Virus record (IMG/VR): IMGVR_UViG_2541047426_000009
Coordinates: 1 to 27,364 of that record
Direction: 5' to 3' (one strand)
DNA from: a virus
Taxonomy: Duplodnaviria > Heunggongvirae > Uroviricota > Caudoviricetes
DNA length: 27,364 bases
How positions within the stretch are numbered: position 1 is the first letter of the stretch; each line of letters opens with the position of its first letter. The translations under genes and the position numbers were made by a program. A model generated the notes under the pieces. That model saw only the letters and a list, made by a program, of their open reading frames with translations, was not told where the DNA came from and searched no databases. Positions 11,026 through 20,316 of the stretch are shown here, one piece after another.

Positions 11026-12083
11026 ATGCTTAATACTGTAAAAATATCCAGTTGTGAGTTAATCAACGCCGACTGCCTGGAATTTATGCGGTCGTTACCC
11101 GAAAATTCTGTTGACCTGATAGTCACGGACCCGCCGTACTTCAAAGTGAAACCCGAGGGCTGGGATAACCAGTGGGCGGGTGATGAAGATTACCTGAAGT
11201 GGCTGGACCAGTGTCTTGCGCAGTTCTGGCGGGTGCTGAAACCTGCCGGAAGTCTTTACCTGTTCTGTGGCCATCGTCTGGCATCTGACACCGAAATCAT
11301 GATGCGTGAGCGGTTTAACGTGCTGAACCATATCATCTGGGCAAAGCCGTCCGGACGCTGGAACGGGTGCAACAAGGAAAGCCTGCGGGCGTATTTCCCC
11401 GCCACAGAGCGCATTCTGTTCGCAGAGCATTATCAGGGGCCGTATCGTCCGAAAGATGCCGGGTATGAGGCGAAGGGTAGGACACTGAAACAGCATGTGA
11501 TGGCCCCGCTGATTGCTTACTTTCGTGATGCGCGCGCTGTCCTGGGGATAACGGCAAAACAGATTGCAGATGCCACAGGAAAGAAAAACATGGTGTCGCA
11601 CTGGTTCAGTGCCGGTCAGTGGCAGCTGCCGAACGAAAGCGATTATCTGAAATTACAGGCACTGTTTGCCCGGGTGGCAGAAGAGAAGCATCAGCGGGGT
11701 GAACTGGAAAGCCCCACCACCAGCTGGTGGATACGTATGCCTCTCTGAACCGACAGTATGCGGAGCTGCAGAGTGAATATAAGCATCTGCGGCGGTATTT
11801 CGGTGTGACGGTGCAGGTGCCGTACACCGATGTGTGGACGTATAAACCGGTGCAGTACTATCCAGGGAAACATCCGTGCGAAAAACCGGCAGAAATGTTG
11901 CAGCAGATAATCAGCGCAAGCAGTCGTCCGGGAGACCTGGTTGCAGATTTCTTCATGGGGTCGGGGTCGACAGTGAAAGCAGCGATGGCGCTGGGACGTC
12001 GTGCAACTGGCGTTGAACTGGAGACTGAACGTTTTGAGCAGACGGTGCGGGAAGTACAGGATTTAATCATTCGTAACGGATGA
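11026..12083 (+). pseudogene. DNA amino-methyltransferase (motif IV DPPY before motif I FxGxG), split by a frameshift near 11703-11748
   Basis: ORF 11026-11748 carries ADCLEFMRSLPENSVDLIVTDPPYF; overlapping ORF 11727-12083 in another frame carries DLVADFFMGSGSTVKAA; together one MTase. Confidence 0.7.
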
Positions 12084-12123: not shown

Positions 12124-12199
12124 GGCCCTTTAGCTCAGCGGTGAGAGCGAGCGACTCATAATCGCCAGGTCGCTGGTTCAAATCCAGCAAGGGCCACCA
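12124..12199 (+). tRNA. tRNA with CAU anticodon (Ile2/ileX-like, or Met)
   Basis: Cloverleaf: acceptor GGCCCTT/AAGGGCC, D-stem GCTC/GAGC, anticodon loop CTCATAA, T-arm GCTGG-TTCAAAT-CCAGC, 3' CCA; resembles recalled E. coli ileX. Confidence 0.85.
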
Positions 12200-12279: not shown

Positions 12280-12356
12280 GCGTTGTTAGCTCAGCCGGAC
12301 AGAGCAATTGCCTTCTAAGCAATCGGTCACTGGTTCGAATCCAGTACAACGCACCA
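12280..12356 (+). tRNA. tRNA-Arg (UCU anticodon, reads AGA)
   Basis: Acceptor GCGTTGT/ACAACGC, D-stem GCTC/GAGC, anticodon stem ATTGC/GCAAT with loop CTTCTAA, T-arm ACTGG-TTCGAAT-CCAGT, 3' CCA. Confidence 0.85.
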
Positions 12357-12760
12357 CACCACACTTATCTGCCCTGACTCTCTTTTGCGGGCTTTTTATT
12401 ACAGGAAAGACACCGGACAGTGAAATGTTAAATGCCTCACAATTCAGGCAGTTGACTGTTGCCTGACATGCTGAGCGTTTGTTAAAAAAATCCTGCATGA
12501 TGAATCCCCCTGAGCGGCGGGGCATAATGACAGATGTTTGGTTGCGTATTGTATAGGCAAGTTGCGGATTCTGTCTGGTCATTGCAGAATTCACCGGGAG
12601 GCACCCGGCATCATGCTGTATACAGAGATTAGGCATATATCCAGGCTTCTCATCGCAGGAGCCTTTTTACATGCAAAAAAAAGCCCGAGTGGGTTCGGGC
12701 AACAGCATGAGATACTTGCATTGTCATTTTTATCGTGTGGATTTTAACCAGGGTTTATAA

Positions 12761-12790: not shown

Positions 12791-12879
12791 TGCGGGCTGC
12801 GGTTCTCCTCTTTTGATTCTCCTTGTGGCCGGACCGTGGCCCGCAACTGTTGAGGAAAATCCCGGAAAGGGGAGGAATA

Positions 12880-14295
12880 ATGACATTTAAACATTATGAT
12901 GTTGTCAGGGCGGCGTCGCCGTCAGACCTTGCGGAAAAGCTGACACACAAACTGAAAGAGGGCTGGCAGCCGTTTGGTAGTCCGGTGGCCATAACCCCTT
13001 ATACCCTGATGCAGGTGATTACAGCAGAAGGTGATGTGGTGGTCAGTGGTGCAACTGAGCCGGATTGGTACTACGTCATCGTACTGGCCGGGCAGTCCAA
13101 TGCCATGGCTTACGGTGAAGGGCTTCCGCTGCCGGATTCATACGATGCTCCGGATCCGCGCATTAAACAGCTGGCGCGCCGCAGTACAGTTACGCCGGGT
13201 GGGGCTGCCTGCAGATATAACGATATTATTCCGGCCGACCACTGCCTGCATGATGTGCAGGATATGAGTACGCTGAATCATCCGAAGGCAGACCTGAGCA
13301 AAGGGCAGTACGGCTGTGTCGGCCAGGGCTTACATATTGCCAAAAAACTGCTTCCGTATATCCCGAATAACGCGGGGATCCTGCTGGTACCATGCTGTCG
13401 TGGTGGTTCGGCATTACCCAGGGCGCGGAGGGGACATTCAGTGCGGACGCGGGGGCCAGCCAGGATTCGGCGCGCTGGGGTGTGGGTAAACCGTTATATC
13501 AGGATCTGATTTCCCGCACTAAAGCGGCATTACAGAAAAATCCCAAAAACGTTCTGCTGGCCGTCTGCTGGATGCAGGGAGAGTTTGACATGAGCGCCGC
13601 CACCCACGCACAGCAACCTGCGCTGTTTACAGCCATGCTGGCACAGTTTCGTGCTGACCTCTCCGTGTTTAACGCGCAGTGCCATGGTGGCAGTGCTGCA
13701 GATGTGCCGTGGATTTGTGGTGACACGACGTATTACTGGAAAAATACCTACGGCACCCAGTACAACACCATTTACGGGGCGTACAAAAACAGGGAGAGTG
13801 AGGGCGTTTATTTTGTGCCCTTCATGACAGACGGTAACGGCGTCAATACCGCCACTAACGCGCCGGCAGAAGATCCGGATATTCCGGCATCAGGATATTA
13901 CGGTGCGGCATCGAGAACGAATGGAAACCAGGTATCATCAAACCGCCCGACACATTTCAGTTCATGGGCGCGCAGGAGCATTATTCCGGATCGTATGGCA
14001 ACCGCTATTCTGAACGCAGCCGGGCGCACCTCAGCCTTCATCAGTGGTAAGGCACCGGAAATCAAACCCTCGCCCGGCGGCAACACGCCATCGGGTCCGT
14101 CTGCAGATACGTCCGTTCGCACAATCTCCCTGCTGCCGGCAGCCGGAGAGGCTGCTGCGCAGGGCTGGAGCATTAAGGATGGCGGAATTCAGTTGTCAGA
14201 TGGTGTATTTAAGATCACCAGGCAGAGCAATAAAACCTGGTCCCTGACGCATCCGGTGGATGACGCAATTACCCTGCTGACACAGGGCGGCAGAC
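12880..14295 (+). pseudogene. N-terminal part of a nanS-p-like sialate O-acetylesterase (DUF1737 + SGNH/SASA domain), frameshifted near 13400-13420 and truncated by an IS insertion
   Basis: MTFKHYDVVRAASPSD N-terminus and YYVIVLAGQSNAMAYGEG motif; reading frame switches between track ORFs 12823-13509 and 13392-14531; ORF runs into the IS inverted repeat at 14296. Confidence 0.7.
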
Positions 14296-14337
14296 TGAAC
14301 CGCCCCGGGTTTCCTGGAGAGTGTTTTATCTGTGAAC

Positions 14338-15228
14338 TCAGGCTGCCAGATCATCGTTTCCGATGGAAGCATAATAAGCTTTTTCTGCTTCTGCCGGAGG
14401 AGTATGGCCCAGCCTTCCCAGCAATCGTCGATTGTTATACCAGTCCACCCACGTTAGTGTGGCCAGTTCCACTTCTGCACGGTTTTTCCAGCTCTTACGG
14501 TGTATTACCTCCGCTTTGTAAAGACCATTGATGCTCTCAGCCATCGCGTTGTCATACGAGTCGCCTGTACTCCCTGTTGATGCCAGTAATCCGGCTTCTT
14601 TTAGTCGCTCCGTATAGGCCAGTGACACATACTGAGAGCCTTTATCGCTGTGATGGATGGTGCCAGACGGACGACGGGCCCACAACGCCTGCTCCAGCGC
14701 ATCCAGCACGAATGTCGTTTCCATAGACGATGAGACCCGCCACCCCACGATGTATCCGGCAAACACATCAATGATAAACGCCACATAGACGAAGCCCTGC
14801 CATGTGCTGACGTAAGTAAAATCAGCCACCCACAGCTGGTCAGGTCGTTCTGCCACGAACTGACGGTTTACGCGGTCGCCTGCGGCAACGGCTTTCCGGC
14901 TGATGGTCGTACGGACCTTTTTACCCCGGAGAACACCGGCAAGTCCCATAACCGCCATGAGACGTGCCACTGTACATCTGGCCACCCTGATTCCTTCCCG
15001 TAACAACTGACGCCAGACTTTACGCACACCGTACACCTGATGATTTTCATCGTATACGCGCTGTATCTCTCTCTTCAGCCAGTCGTCGTGCTGCGCACGG
15101 GCACTGCGTTTATCCGGATGATGTCGCTGTTGCTGACAATGGTAATACGTTGACGGGGCAATATGCAGTTCGCTGCATACCGGTCCGACCCCGTACTGCT
15201 CACGCAGCTTATCCAGCAGTGGCATCAT
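14338..15228 (-). CDS. IS3-family transposase OrfB (DDE catalytic domain)
   Basis: 296 aa; matches recalled IS629 OrfB. Confidence 0.9.
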
Positions 15229-15551
15229 TTTTTCCAGAGGCGGTCGAACTCCGCCTTCGCAAAATAAGCGGAAGCCTGGCGAAGGATATCGTTACTGCGG
15301 CGCAGTTCACGATTTTCACGTTCCAGCTCTTTCAGACGCTGACGTTCAGCGCTGGTGAGCCCACCATCACCGCCCCCGGTATCCCGCTCATGCTGGCGAA
15401 CCCAGACACGCAGAGTCTCCGGCGTACAGCCAATCTTTGGGGCAATGGAACAAATTGCCGCCCACTGTGAGTCATATTCATCCTGACTTTCCAGAACCAT
15501 ACGAATCGCCCGCTGACGGACTTCGGGGGAAAAACGAGTATTTTTAGTCAT
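15225..15551 (-). CDS. IS3-family transposase OrfA (HTH)
   Basis: 108 aa; overlaps orfB start, typical -1 frameshift arrangement. Confidence 0.9.
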
Positions 15552-15605
15552 CCTGTTTACCTCTTTCTCAGGGAGTTTAGTCTCCAGGATTTCCGGGGCG
15601 GTTCA

Positions 15606-16045
15606 GACTGACCTGTAAGTTCCGCCTGTCAGGCGCACTGACCAACAATCAGTTCGGGCTGGGGATTTATCTGTATACGGATGCTCCCGTTCCTGATGGT
15701 GTGGCGATGACGGGTACCGGTAATCCGTTCCTGATGTCGTACTTCACTCAGACCACTGACGGCAGAGTGAATCTGATGCATCACAGGAAAGCCGGAAACA
15801 CGAAGCTGGGGGAGTTCGGCGATTACGGTAACGACTGGCAGACGCTGGAGCTGGTGTTCACCGCCGGCAGTGCCACGGTTACTCCGAAACTGAATGGAGT
15901 GGCTGGCCCGGCATTCCAGGTTATAAAAGACAGTATGACACTGGGACTGAATGCGCTGACGCTGACGGATGTTACAAAAAATGCAGCGTATGGCGTTGAG
16001 ATAGAAAGTCTGGTGCTGGAGATAAATGCACCGGCATCATCATAA
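15606..16045 (+). pseudogene. C-terminal part of the nanS-p-like esterase, separated from the N-terminal part by the IS element
   Basis: After removing the IS and one TSD copy the frame is continuous with the upstream segment; track ORF 15701-16045 is its tail. Confidence 0.65.
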
Positions 16046-16809: not shown

Positions 16810-17343
16810 ATGAACGCAAAAATCAGATACGGCCTGTCGGCTGCCGTTCTGGCGCTGATTGGTGCAGGGGCGTCTGCGCCTGAAATCCTCGACCAGTTTC
16901 TTGACGAAAAAGAAGGTAACCACACCACGGCATACCGTGATGGTGCGGGTATCTGGACCATCTGCCGCGGTGCCATCCTGGTGGATGGTAAACCTGTCGT
17001 TCCGGGCATGAAGTTGTCGAAGGAAAAATGCGACCAGGTTAACGCCATTGAACGTGATAAGGCGCTGGAGTGGGTGGAGCGCAATATTAAAGTACCGCTG
17101 ACCGAACCCCAGAAAGCGGGGATCGCGTCATTCTGTCCGTACAACATTGGTCCCGGTAAGTGTTTCCCGTCGACGTTTTACAGACGAATTAATGCAGGTG
17201 ATCGCAGGGGAGCGTGTGAGGCGATTCGCTGGTGGATTAAGGACGGTGGCAGAGACTGCCGTATTCGCTCAAACAACTGCTACGGTCAGGTTTCACGGCG
17301 TGACCAGGAGAGCGCGCTGGCGTGCTGGGGAATTGACAGATAA
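16810..17343 (+). CDS. SAR endolysin (GH24 lysozyme, phage 21 R-like)
   Basis: N-terminal weakly hydrophobic Gly/Ala-rich segment then E...D...T catalytic pattern (DEKEGNHTTAYRDGAGIWT). Confidence 0.85.
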   Translation: MNAKIRYGLSAAVLALIGAGASAPEILDQFLDEKEGNHTTAYRDGAGIWTICRGAILVDGKPVVPGMKLSKEKCDQVNAIERDKALEWVERNIKVPLTEPQKAGIASFCPYNIGPGKCFPSTFYRRINAGDRRGACEAIRWWIKDGGRDCRIRSNNCYGQVSRRDQESALACWGIDR

Positions 17344-17435
17344 GCAGAATATTTTGCTGAAAAATGCGGTTTGCTCACACTGGCGGATAACACGAAATCC
17401 TGCGAACTGGCAAAAACTAAGTGAATAAAAGTAAA

Positions 17436-17470
17436 ACCCCGTTTGTTGGCCGCAAACGGGGTTTTGTGTT
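17436..17470 (+). terminator. strong intrinsic terminator after the endolysin gene
   Basis: CCCCGTTTG-ttggccg-CAAACGGGG followed by TTTTGTGTTT; A-rich upstream so possibly bidirectional. Confidence 0.55.
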
Positions 17471-17498
17471 TCTGACCTTGAGTAAGGCAAGGGAGAAC

Positions 17499-17681
17499 AT
17501 GGGAAAGTATAAACGAATTCTGTTGAGATTGACTATGAAAAACGGCCTTGAACTGAAAGCGCCTGTAACTGATGACGTCAGCAGAGCGCTGGCTTTTGCT
17601 ATTAAGTGGGTGGCGGTCGGTATTGCTGTGTCTCCGATGCTGTATGGGCTGGCAAAACTGGTCATTGCGTTGAAATCGTGA
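17499..17681 (+). CDS. small 60-aa protein with C-terminal hydrophobic helix
   Basis: ATG with AAGGGAGAA RBS; C-terminal segment ALAFAIKWVAVGIAVSPMLYGLAKLVIAL. Confidence 0.4.
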   Translation: MGKYKRILLRLTMKNGLELKAPVTDDVSRALAFAIKWVAVGIAVSPMLYGLAKLVIALKS

Positions 17682-17693
17682 AGAGGATTAAGC

Positions 17694-17825
17694 ATGTCAG
17701 ACAAGCTCATAACGCTGGCGAAGATCCTCTGTGTAATCGTCGGCATTTCATTTTCACTAATGCTGGTTGCTATTTGCTTTTCCACTGCCTGGCGCGTCTT
17801 AACTTTGTCATGGCTGGTGGGGTGA
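17694..17825 (+). CDS. 43-aa single-pass membrane peptide
   Basis: ATG with [52 protein letters not shown]; below the ORF-track size cut-off. Confidence 0.35.
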
Positions 17826-17832
17826 GGGGGAT

Positions 17833-18300
17833 ATGAACCGTGTTCTGTGTGTGGTGATTATTGTCCTGCTGGTAGCCTGTGGTGTGCTTAGTCTGGGGCT
17901 GAATCATTACCGCGATAACGCCATTACCTACAAAGCGCAACGCGATAAAAAAGCCAGTGAGCTGAAGCTGGCGAACGTGACAATTACTGATATGCAGGTA
18001 CGCCAGCGTGATGTCGCTGCACTTGATGCCAGATACTCGAGGGAATTAGCCGATGCGAGAGCTGAAAATGAAACTCTGCGTGCTGATGTTGCCGCTGGTC
18101 GTAAGCGCCTGCGCATCAACGCCAACTGTCCAGGCTCCTTGCGTAAAGCCCCCATCACCTCCGGCGTGGATAATGCAACCGGTCCCCGACTGGCAGAAGC
18201 CGCTGAACGGGATTATTTCATCCTCAGAGAACGGCTGATGGCAATGCAGAAGCAACTGGAAGGAGCACAGGAATATATCCGTACCCAGTGTATACCGTGA
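17833..18300 (+). CDS. Rz i-spanin
   Basis: 155 aa; N-terminal TM then coiled-coil-like region; contains embedded +1-frame lipoprotein ORF. Confidence 0.8.
18068..18238 (+). CDS. Rz1 o-spanin lipoprotein embedded in Rz
   Basis: [15 protein letters not shown] lipobox signal then Pro-rich mature peptide, wholly inside Rz in the +1 frame. Confidence 0.7.
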
Positions 18301-18763
18301 TGTTTTGTTACGAAGGTGTTACTGGTAACGTTAAGGTAATTTAACAAAGAGTCAGTTCCGGACTTTATAGTGTGCTCAGTTCATGGCCAAAAACGATTTC
18401 TGTGATAAATATTTTGAATATTATTTACAGGTAAATGGAGTGGGGCACATGGATAGAAATATTACAATAGAGTATGAAGTATATGCCCGTATTGTATGGG
18501 CAGAGAAGGCAAAAACATGGTAATTCCGTGTGTTGCCATGATACCTGATTGGCAGAATTGTTGTTTGGTTTTGAGTATATAGTCAGCGTCTTTTGTTCGG
18601 TAATTGCTCTTTCAATTAAAATGCCAGATATGATTTGCTTTTCTTTGTTGTTTAGTTTTTTTGTATATTATTTTTATTGTTTTTATATAATTAGTTTTTT
18701 ATTGTTGTCTTATTAAGCACGGTAAATTCAGGATGGCAGTCTGTAGATAAACGGAGGTTACTT

Positions 18764-19078
18764 ATGCTACATGATCACCTGGCAGAATGTCTGGAGAAAA
18801 AAGGACTGTACCGGAGAGCAGCTGAACGATGGGCAAAAGTGATGGTACAGCTAAGTGATGACCAGAAAAGAAAAGTGGCGGCACAGAAACGAGCAGAGTG
18901 TTTGCGTAAGGCGCGCCGGACTCCGGTTTCACCGATGAACCTGACAGAAATAAAACAAGCGGTCAACAGACTACATTCTGAGTTGGGAATGGGATTTGAA
19001 GAGCGGCGGGTATTCCGACGATATAAAGGGACAGGAGAACAGAATACGTCCGGAAACGCGCGGTCAAAAAAATGCTAA
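18764..19078 (+). CDS. PerC-family transcriptional regulator (Pch-like) moron
   Basis: 104 aa; pattern LEKKGLYRRAAERWAKVM...RAECLRKARR...LTEIKQAV matches recalled PerC/Pch family; strong RBS AAACGGAGG; AT-rich upstream region. Confidence 0.6.
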   Translation: MLHDHLAECLEKKGLYRRAAERWAKVMVQLSDDQKRKVAAQKRAECLRKARRTPVSPMNLTEIKQAVNRLHSELGMGFEERRVFRRYKGTGEQNTSGNARSKKC

Positions 19079-19113
19079 AAAATATCTGAGAGCGTTATTG
19101 CCTGTTACCATAA

Positions 19114-19142
19114 GAAAAAGCGACTTTAGTGGTCGCTTTTTG
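19114..19142. terminator. putative bidirectional terminator between convergent genes
   Basis: AAAAAGCGAC-tttagtg-GTCGCTTTTT, A-run and T-run on either side. Confidence 0.45.
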
Positions 19143-19159
19143 TGTCATATATAAGTCGT

Positions 19160-19384
19160 TTAAGTAAACCTGTCTGAACAGGTTCTCTGGTCGTGTTTGT
19201 CTTTGTTGGGTACAAATTGAGAATATTTTTCATTAATTAATCTTCTTCTGCAGGCTTCAATAACCCACGCTGAAAAATTTCCTGAACCTTTCAGATCAAG
19301 AGCGATGTTAATTTGTTCAATCATCTGGTTTGGAAATCGGATGTTGCGGGTTGTTGTTCTGCGGGTTCTGTTCTTTGATGACAT
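19160..19384 (-). CDS. small 74-aa protein, possible ribbon-helix-helix regulator (YlcI/YnfO-like by position upstream of terminase)
   Basis: ORF on minus strand in AT-rich region; assignment by size and context only. Confidence 0.45.
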   Translation of the reverse strand: MSSKNRTRRTTTRNIRFPNQMIEQINIALDLKGSGNFSAWVIEACRRRLINEKYSQFVPNKDKHDQRTCSDRFT

Positions 19385-19583
19385 AATGTTGCCCCATATT
19401 CAGTGTTGCTGATTTGTATTATCTGAAGTTGCTTTTACGTTAATTTGATGCAGATCAATTAATACGATACCTGCGTCATAATTGATTATTTGACGTGGTT
19501 TGATGGCGTAGATGCACGTTGTGACATGTAGATGATAATTATTATCATTTTGCGGGTCCTTTCCGGCGATCCGACCGGTTACG

Positions 19584-19595
19584 GGGCGGCGACCT
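19584..19595 (+). other. cosN cohesive-end sequence GGGCGGCGACCT
   Basis: ACG/GGGCGGCGACCTCGCGGGTTTTCGCTATTTATGAAAATTTTCCGG matches recalled lambda cos junction. Confidence 0.75.
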
Positions 19596-19770
19596 CGCGG
19601 GTTTTCGCTATTTATGAAAATTTTCCGGGGAAAATCATGTCGGTACTTCTCGAACATAACTATTTGTTTTTTCTAATATCGAATCCGTAAAGGTCCGACA
19701 TGAAAACGCCTGAAAAAGTCATTTTCGGGCACTTTCATGTCGGACCCTGTATTTGTTGTGAGACTGTTTC
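19596..19770 (+). promoter_or_regulatory. cosB-like region with three CATGTCGG elements (19636-19643 +, 19695-19702 inverted, 19736-19743 +)
   Basis: Orientation pattern +,-,+ mirrors lambda R3/R2/R1 but the element sequence differs from lambda. Confidence 0.5.
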
Positions 19771-20290
19771 ATGAAGGTTAATAAAAAGAAACTTGCCGAA
19801 ATTTTCAACGTGGATCCGCGAACGATTGAACGCTGGCAGTCTCAGGGGCTCCCTTGCGTCTCCGGAGGTGGTAAGGGCGTTGAATCTGTATTTGATACCG
19901 CCACGGCAATTCAGTGGTATGCGCAGAGGGAAGCTGATATCGAAAATGAAAAACTCCGTAAAGAGGTTGAGGATTACAGGGCTGCCAGCGAGGCAGATCT
20001 CCAGCCTGGGACTATTGAGTACGAACGCCATCGACTTACGCGTGCGCAGGCTGACGCCCAGGAGCTGAAGAATGCCAGAGACTCCGCAGAAGTGGTGGAA
20101 ACCGCATTCTGTACTTTCGTGCTGTCACGGATCGCAGGTGAAATTGCCAGTATTCTTGACGGGATCCCTCTCTCAGTACAGCGGCGTTTTCCGGAACTGG
20201 AAAACCGACATGTTGATTTCCTGAAACGGGATATTATCAAAGCCATGAACAAAGCAGCCGCGCTGGATGAACTGATACCGGGGTTGCTGA

Positions 20291-20316
<26 letters not shown>
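19771..20316 (+). CDS. nu1: terminase small subunit (Nu1-like; N-terminal DNA-binding domain diverged from lambda, remainder near-identical)
   Basis: 181 aa; C-terminal two-thirds matches recalled lambda Nu1 ([42 protein letters not shown]...). Confidence 0.9.

Follow-up and report, generated by a model that had tools for sequence, protein, structure and literature searches.

The stretch of DNA analysed here (27,364 nucleotides of the Caudoviricetes record IMGVR_UViG_2541047426_000009, hereafter the window) contains a lambdoid prophage in which a regulator gene of the PerC/Pch type, pch, lies behind a long AT-rich leader and ahead of an intrinsic terminator. The features of this locus and of its surroundings are collected in Table 1. 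Rz closes the lysis cassette and delimits the pch module on its upstream side, and on the other side a YlcI/YnfO gene, convergent with pch and a common lambdoid feature near cos, is placed between pch and the cohesive end. With Rz upstream and cos and the small terminase gene downstream, pch lies between the lysis cassette and cos, as an earlier interpretation made from the letters alone (the sequence-only reading) had it. In E. coli O157:H7 Sakai, pchA, pchB and pchC are found at the corresponding place of the prophages Sp4, Sp11 and Sp14, with Rz/Rz1 on one side and the gene of the small terminase subunit on the other. The window pch is therefore carried on a horizontally acquired element, in the lysis-to-terminase interval of a lambdoid prophage. 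The backbone of this prophage is a mosaic, with an early region close to that of TR01, a late region close to Sp11 and a lysis region close to Sp14. Signs of decay were also seen in it: IS629 lies inside a large ORF of the late region, and the DNA methyltransferase, which is one intact gene in TR01, is found in two ORFs.

Table 1. Coordinates of the pch locus and of related features in the window
Feature	Position	Strand	Evidence or remark
DicF-like sRNA copy	183..232	-	Rfam RF00039, 43.5 bits (gathering score 48), E 3.7e-08, full model length
Lysozyme	16810..17343		Upstream of Rz
Rz i-spanin	17833..18300	+	Pfam Phage_lysis E 2e-46; PHROG 13 'Rz-like spanin' E 4.5e-74
Rz1 o-spanin ORF	18053..18238		Inside Rz; Sakai counterpart annotated as lipoprotein precursor
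Leader, conserved 5' part	18301..18610	+	Mean pairwise identity 96.9%, 8 copies
Predicted sigma-70-like site	18341..18371	+	TTAACA-19 bp-TATAGT; lenient scan of 4 alleles, kept in all
46-aa ORF	18383..18523	+	PHROG 2157, E 1e-37, full-length match
Leader, hypervariable T-rich block	18611..18725	+	Mean pairwise identity 79%, minimum 58%; two main alleles
Leader, conserved proximal segment	18726..18763	+	Shine-Dalgarno GGAGG at 18753-18757
pch	18764..19078	+	104 aa, ATG start; PchABC-type PerC-family regulator
Bidirectional intrinsic terminator, pch (+)/ylcI-ynfO (-)	19115..19141	both	11-bp stem, A-run and T-run flanks
YlcI/YnfO (DUF3950) gene	19160..19384	-	Pfam DUF3950 E 1.8e-18; NCBIfam YlcI_YnfO_N 34.6 bits, cutoff 30
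cos, lambda-type 12-nt cohesive end	19584-19595	+	GGGCGGCGACCT, exact match
Nu1, small terminase subunit	19771..20316		E 4e-91

The Pfam PerC family (PF06069) matched the ORF with 150.1 bits (E 2.2e-44) against a gathering score of 22.6 bits, residues 1-89 lying on positions 1-89 of the 90 in the model, and PHROG families named transcriptional activators were also matched in the profile search. The sequence-only reading had assigned the protein to the PerC/Pch family and had named a lack of significant similarity to PerC profiles as what would speak against it; with this full-length match the assignment stands. Alignment to PerC and PchA-E, which that reading had proposed as a check, was carried out, and the protein proved to be 100% identical to PchC of Sakai, with 0 residue differences. 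Identity to Sakai PchB is 99% (one difference, M58V) and to Sakai PchA 98% (two differences, L6V and M58V), followed by EPEC PerC of the perABC operon on pMAR7 (47% over residues 2-88), PchE (40%) and PchD (28%). The window protein has A7, L10, E11, G14, R17, R18, A19, A20, R22, W23 and C46, a set of N-terminal residues conserved to at least 90% in 79 representatives of the PerC family. At the DNA level, a 1.2-kb query around pch showed 99.8% identity to many O157:H7 chromosomes, where the near-identical gene is annotated as 'PerC family transcriptional regulator'. By its length of 104 aa and its near-identity to these genes, the window gene is of the pchABC type and belongs to the PchABC subgroup of EHEC. 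The suggestion that the prophage may carry a virulence-regulatory gene is borne out, and the gene can be named more specifically, its product being identical to Sakai PchC.

Comparison with the known members of the family helps to place the window copy. PchC (ECs_2737, Sp14), PchB (ECs_2182, Sp11) and PchA (ECs_1091, Sp4) of Sakai are all 104 aa long, like the window protein, and their genes share with the window the architecture of the leader, the 3' UTR and the terminator; Sakai pchC differs in that the window has a pchB-type T-rich leader before its PchC-type protein. EPEC PerC (BfpW, on the EAF plasmid pMAR7) shares the Pfam family and the N-terminal motif with the window Pch, but it is plasmid-borne, 89 aa long and co-transcribed with the AraC-type PerA and with PerB, which precede it, and it has neither the basic C-terminal tail of 15 residues that is present in the window Pch nor a long AT-rich leader of its own. 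PchD (ECs_1388, SpLE1) and PchE (ECs_1588, Sp7) likewise share the invariant residues A7, L10, E11, G14, R17, R18, A19, R22, W23 and C46, whereas they are 89-90 aa long and occur in other genomic contexts.

The interval from the Rz stop codon to the ATG of pch spans 463 bp (18301-18763) with 33.0% G+C, as compared with 51.4% for the window, and the description of about 460 bp of very AT-rich DNA before the gene is accurate. A G+C content this low or lower is reached by just 0.07% of 463-bp segments, which makes the leader essentially the most AT-rich segment of its size; its lowest 150 bp start at 18554 and have 23% G+C. A search of Rfam at E<=1 gave no match within 18301..18610, the conserved 5' segment of the leader, and over 18200-19800 it gave spurious matches to eukaryotic miRNAs and snoRNAs only. 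The leader is a plausible target of H-NS. As no H-NS occupancy data for the region upstream of pch were found in PMC4764244, in its supplements or in further literature searches, the label 'H-NS-silenced' of the sequence-only reading is an inference from AT-richness.

To describe variation along the locus, eight copies were aligned, namely the window, Sakai pchA, pchB and pchC, O157:H7 strain 493/89 and isolates from human, dog and monkey, the last four being diverged copies. The leader falls into the three zones listed in Table 1. In the T-rich block, the window differs from Sakai pchB at 1 position in 115 bp, from pchA at 36 and from pchC at 38, and over the whole leader 57 positions differ between the window and Sakai pchC. 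The coding sequence, by contrast, is of the PchC type, with M58 and a linked synonymous site. Since the leader matches the Sakai pchB allele while the coding sequence matches the pchC allele, the window allele is, judged by these alleles, a natural recombinant between pch loci that joins a pchB-type leader to a PchC-type protein. If the type of leader governs regulation, the window pch may be regulated in a pchB-like manner. The coding sequence itself is 98% conserved over the eight copies. In the copy of monkey strain A25, 18 changed nucleotides alter only 8 amino acids, and 10 of the 18 variable codons in the eight copies are synonymous; on account of both observations the pch coding sequence looks constrained.

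With regard to expression signals, a default promoter scan of the leader returned no site. A lenient scan of four alleles predicted the conserved sigma-70-like site of Table 1 and, in addition, a perfect TATAAT at 18686-18691 with a poor -35 element, which is specific to the pchB-type leader. No paper with a mapped transcription start site for pch was found in the literature searched. The terminator is strong, its hairpin folding with -14.7 kcal/mol on the + strand (z -3.9) and -11.9 kcal/mol on the - strand (z -3.8), values that none of 200 shuffled sequences equalled, and it is invariant in all eight copies within a 3' UTR that is essentially invariant as well.

Near the start of the window lies a DicF-like copy, which is 93% identical to the first 29 nt of a K-12 DicF sequence. 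In reviews (PMC7769764, PMC7873438), DicF is described as an activator of pchA translation that opens the structure in which the ribosome-binding site is sequestered. Around the pch start, a local fold of 18735-18800 pairs the Shine-Dalgarno bases AGGU with ACCU of codons 5-6, but neither this fold (z -0.22) nor that of 18700-18900 (z +0.97) has an energy better than that of shuffled sequences. The duplex between the DicF copy of the window and pch, calculated with RNAduplex, has -22.1 kcal/mol, which does not improve on 29% of shuffled targets or on 57% of tiles of the window; a pairing drawn by hand comprises about 5+4 bp with a bulge between. As our own energy calculations are not separable from background, the sequestration of the Shine-Dalgarno sequence and the action of DicF are steps for which we depend on the literature.

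The distribution of the locus was examined in 5,426 complete E. coli genomes. The leader was found in 673 of them, always at full length and with a median copy number of 3, and at least 80% of the 1.2-kb pch module was likewise found in 673 of the 5,426; from the equality of these counts it follows that leader and gene are inherited together. The ler/LEE1 region was present in 697 of the 5,426 genomes, in one copy each. Strains TR01, 472, WS4202, 2013C-3264, FWSEC0003 and 2015C-3108 appear in both the pch and the ler lists, and the pch serotypes O157:H7, O55:H7, O103:H2 and O45:H2 recur in the ler list, O111 doing so by O group only. Although 673 and 697 are separate counts, co-occurrence of the pch module and LEE across genomes is strongly suggested. 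O157:H7 TR01, with a pch locus near-identical to that of the window, has ler in its genome, and near-identical loci of this kind suggest that the host of the window would likewise carry LEE.

Amongst 50,697 phage records, the pch module was matched only by fragments induced from an O157:H7 strain, and it is thus essentially absent from sequenced free phages; lambda and related free phages share just the cos-proximal 200 bp of the 1.2-kb query. The term 'moron', used for the gene in the sequence-only reading, is apt in view of the distinct base composition, the terminator of its own, the absence from lambda and free phages and the presence of bor in the corresponding slot of Sp8. Like pch, the bor and lom morons of lambda are non-essential cargo of the late region with distinct composition and their own terminator, and in Sakai Sp8 it is exactly the pch slot that bor occupies. 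Unlike them, however, pch encodes a regulator of an unlinked pathogenicity island and not a surface protein.

In terms of function, pch is already known as an experimentally characterised virulence regulator and is not new, because published work has PchABC activating LEE1/ler by relieving H-NS silencing. Activation of LEE1/ler was shown experimentally for PchA and through a pchABC triple mutant, and it takes place only under repression by H-NS/StpA/Hha/YdgT; with Pch expressed, less H-NS is bound at LEE1 in vivo, and in a system reconstituted in vitro Pch excludes H-NS (PMC4764244). The pchABC genes are needed for full LEE expression and adherence in a dosage-dependent way (PMC4456613, PMC5293775). 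LrhA, and Lrp with butyrate, are reported to act on pchA and pchB. PerC and Pch are reported to be functionally interchangeable in LEE1 activation; however, RNA-seq of an EPEC perC deletion showed no regulation of LEE1 under the conditions used (PMC5293775), so that the effect depends on conditions and dosage. As for PchE, two papers (PMC7369912, PMC6265319) report repression of curli and flagella instead of activation of LEE.

Taking these observations together, we are highly confident that a lambdoid prophage from a LEE-positive lineage of E. coli here carries an ordinary pchABC cargo module. Its three parts, the AT-rich upstream region of about 460 bp, the 104-aa PerC-family gene and the bidirectional terminator, travel together as an insert that separates the lysis genes from cos. 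Going by the literature on identical and near-identical proteins, Pch would associate with the LEE1 promoter and lower the occupancy of H-NS/StpA there. With ler de-silenced, Ler would switch on the remaining LEE type III secretion island along with many non-LEE effector genes. The several pch copies of a genome would add up through gene dosage, and they would be regulated in their turn, inputs from LrhA, from Lrp with butyrate and from DicF having been reported for pchA/pchB. Iyoda and Watanabe are reported to have found in 2004 a smaller contribution of pchC than of pchA or pchB.

Two other readings of the locus deserve consideration, one of the leader and one of the gene. The leader might be coding in part, the 46-aa ORF being a real gene for a small protein that is co-transcribed with pch. 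Its full-length match to PHROG 2157 points that way, as does a frame that is open, with start and stop unchanged, in all eight copies, including those with leaders of 86-91% identity, and the only conserved promoter-like site lies immediately upstream. PHROG 2157, on the other hand, may merely gather ORFs called in near-identical prophages, and on detailed examination the variation was not of the kind expected of a gene: 9 of the 10 variable codons are non-synonymous, and the variable sites are spread 4/5/3 over the codon positions, so that no third-position bias is seen in the eight copies. Furthermore, no Shine-Dalgarno sequence is recognisable upstream of its ATG, no gene is annotated under the leader among the RefSeq matches listed, and no diverged homologue was found in the 50,697 phage records, the sole match being a fragment derived from O157. 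A protein-coding gene is accordingly improbable for want of coding-type conservation in its codons. The excess of non-synonymous changes, the missing annotation and the lack of diverged phage relatives lead us to take the ORF as a non-gene, and the region is probably conserved as DNA or RNA. The other reading makes pch an inert, silenced passenger of a decaying prophage, with no regulatory contribution. The IS629 insertion and the split methyltransferase, the near absence of the module from free phage records and a leader that is a plausible H-NS target would all agree with it. An inert gene is nevertheless hard to reconcile with an ORF, a Shine-Dalgarno sequence and a terminator that hundreds of genomes retain intact and almost unchanged, with coding substitutions biased to synonymous ones and with published deletions in which the pch genes are needed for LEE expression. 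We therefore hold a passenger role to be very improbable, more so than a coding leader, and retain the pchABC cargo module as the explanation of the locus.

A further observation concerns the N-terminal part of the protein and its relationship to the ANR family, which includes Aar of EAEC and Rnr of EPEC. ANR proteins are described as anti-activators whose binding partners are AraC-type regulators and H-NS (PMC4983702, PMC10148876, PMC5570504). The window Pch matches the NCBIfam model ANR_neg_reg (NF033650) with 13.6 bits (E 0.046), below the curated cutoff of 32 bits, for which reason it is not filed as an ANR protein and is not a member of that family. Nevertheless, all eight PerC-family proteins compared, down to 28% identity, match NF033650 in one register. 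Among 1.84 billion representative proteins, phmmer found only 84 clusters at E<=0.001; after removal of three overlong sequences and three fragments, the remaining 78 and the window protein form the set of 79 representatives. Every one of the 79 matches Pfam PerC, and 57 match the ANR model at E<=0.01, all in a single register, with a best value of 2.2e-08. One of them, P0081 (70 aa), exceeds the ANR cutoff with 33.8 bits against 32, and another, P0061, falls short of it by 0.4 bits. When six bona fide ANR proteins from plasmids were in turn compared with Pfam PerC, two gave matches below threshold and Aar itself gave none. Profile comparison with hhalign, using the deep PerC profile, aligned Pch 5-54 with Aar 12-61 (E 0.0012, probability 19%); a shallow profile of eight PerC sequences gave no support when compared with Aar alone (probability 0.3%).

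The published ANR signature, in the numbering of Aar, consists of A14, E18, A26, W30, A33, W45 and R49, and mutation of A14, E18, A26 or W45 abolishes the activity of Aar (PMC4983702). At a single offset, six of the seven coincide with positions conserved in the PerC family (A7 95%, E11 97%, A19 100%, W23 100%, W38 32% as the commonest residue, and R42 75%), as compared with 0-2 of the seven at other offsets, and C46 of the PerC family is aligned with C53 of Aar. The window Pch is identical at four of the seven sites (A7, E11, A19, W23) and has V26, V38 and K42 at the remaining ones. A model made with AlphaFold2 from the alignment of 79 sequences predicts N-terminal helices at 5-13, 16-29 and 33-50 with pLDDT of about 96, followed by a fourth helix (60-73) and a disordered tail; the predicted N-terminal unit of three helices agrees with the three helices described for ANR. 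Amongst solved structures, a search by sequence gave a marginal MarR match alone (E 0.036), and Foldseek found nothing for the model in the PDB at E<=0.001. In the three-helix domain of about 45 residues, the conserved A, E, A, W, W, R and C are spaced alike in the ANR family and in PerC; ANR proteins are smaller than 10 kDa and lack the C-terminal half, five of the six compared being 43-64 aa long as against 104 aa for the window Pch. Genomic context is in keeping with a relationship: perC follows the AraC-type gene perA, three of five further ANR genes adjoin a gene for an AraC-type, HTH or response-regulator protein, and a PerC homologue of EAEC 042 is activated by AggR according to the literature. 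Considering all this evidence, we think it likely that the N-terminal 50 or so residues of PerC/Pch and the ANR domain are homologous. In the literature searched, which took in the ANR papers and one paper naming both families, the two were not connected in this way. The homology is the sole element here that goes beyond the known biology of pch, and it may be new.

Such a relationship raises a different view of the mechanism, in which Pch would be a protein-binding modulator of the ANR type with a C-terminal extension, and not a classical DNA-binding activator, and would relieve silencing mainly through contacts with H-NS/StpA or with an AraC-family partner, in the manner of Aar. The in-register matches to NF033650, the passing of the curated cutoff by P0081, the weak reverse matches, the hhalign E value for Aar, the coincidence of signature residues at one offset only, the confidently predicted three-helix unit and the neighbourhood of regulator genes speak in its favour. 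Several points weigh on the other side. The window protein itself scores well below the ANR cutoff, the hhalign probability is low and Aar does not match Pfam PerC, and three-helix units generically match TPR folds. The regulatory sign of Pch is also opposite to that of ANR proteins, and ChIP of PchA at LEE1 is unchanged in an hns stpA mutant (PMC4764244), which argues against a simple dependence on H-NS. We therefore regard an ANR-type mode of action as a tentative possibility on the unlikely side, less secure by far than the homology of the domain.

For the organism, the pchABC reading means that the window can be annotated with confidence as carrying a LEE activator of the pchABC type, a marker of an attaching-and-effacing lineage (EHEC or atypical EPEC), and that this prophage copy contributes to the dosage of virulence-gene activation. 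The recombinant allele shows that the regulatory and coding parts of pch reassort between prophages, which could shift the signals that control each copy. For the family, if the relationship between PerC and ANR is true, two families of enteric virulence regulators, one of 'activators' and one of 'anti-activators', would be united in one superfamily, and the absence of a recognised DNA-binding motif in Pch would be explained. In that case A7, E11, A19 and W23 would make up a surface for contacts with other proteins, which provides a testable hypothesis for how Pch acts.

The first ~50 residues of PerC/Pch proteins and the ANR (Aar/Rnr) anti-activator domain appear, on profile and alignment comparison, to be homologous. 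NCBIfam NF033650, the ANR family model, is matched by 57 of the 79 PerC/Pch family representatives, which include the protein of the window, and its cutoff is passed by one of the 79. A single offset aligns six of the seven ANR signature residues with the PerC/Pch family, and the predicted fold of its N-terminal ~50 residues is a three-helix unit. No paper stating such a homology was found in the literature searched. A 155-aa protein of the Yersinia ruckeri plasmid pYR4 (L016:16-480), preceded by a DUF2786 gene, is annotated as ANR family and carries the domain C-terminally, after an N-terminal extension of ~95 residues; in PHROG 1324, a profile of 172 positions labelled as transcriptional activator, positions 104-153 match Pch residues 6-55. 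An ANR-type domain is therefore also found in longer proteins.

Features located in the window
Feature	Position	Strand	Details
STnc100-like match, second	30-181	-	partial
DicF-like sRNA copy	183-232	-	Rfam RF00039, 43.5 bits, slightly below gathering score 48
paa	6402..7160		AcfC-family adhesin gene; start overlapped by AT-rich stretch
hokD/sok locus	7349-7498 (sok RNA)		after paa
DNA methyltransferase	11026-12083	+	split into ORFs of 240 aa and 118 aa that overlap
tRNA Met(cat)	12124-12199		ARAGORN call
tRNA Arg(tct)	12280-12356		ARAGORN call
STnc100 sRNA	12466-12674	+	175 bits
Anti-sRNA AgvB	12676-12735	-	56.6 bits, gathering score 56
IS629 copy	14294-15610		99.9% identity to Sakai IS629
ALIL frameshift pseudoknot of IS629	15154-15270
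Pair of small ORFs (86 aa, 43 aa)	within 17421-17825		between lysozyme and Rz; PHROGs 1115 and 4906
ANR-like part of Pch	18764-18920		residues 1-52 of Pch, as compared in alignments A3 and A4

When the pch leader was compared with those of three other pch copies (L002, L003 and L004), its T-rich block (18611-18725) was found to exist as two sharply different alleles between conserved flanks, one shared by pchB and the window, the other by pchA and pchC. Since a PchC-type coding sequence is joined in the window to a pchB-type block, the comparison indicates that pch loci have recombined with each other. Sakai Sp14 likewise has two small ORFs between lysozyme and Rz, whereas in TR01 and Sp11 this place is taken by the antirepressor gene together with one small ORF; the interval is one more mosaic junction.

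A large late-region ORF, homologous to ECs_2746/ECs_1088, is interrupted by IS629, and upstream of the insertion it is itself broken into two pieces (12823..13509 and 13392..14531). The DNA methyltransferase is a single intact gene of 352 aa in TR01 but is split in two here, which suggests a frameshift.

The stretch of the window that ranks second in AT-richness (6147-6609, 33.5% G+C) overlaps the start of paa; the early region thus seems to hold a further AT-rich cargo gene here (6147-7160). STnc100 and AgvB lie immediately downstream of the prophage tRNA genes, and the DicF-like copy sits between ydfC and dicB, the place expected from the TR01 annotation. One prophage therefore holds both a DicF-like RNA and pch, a reported DicF target.
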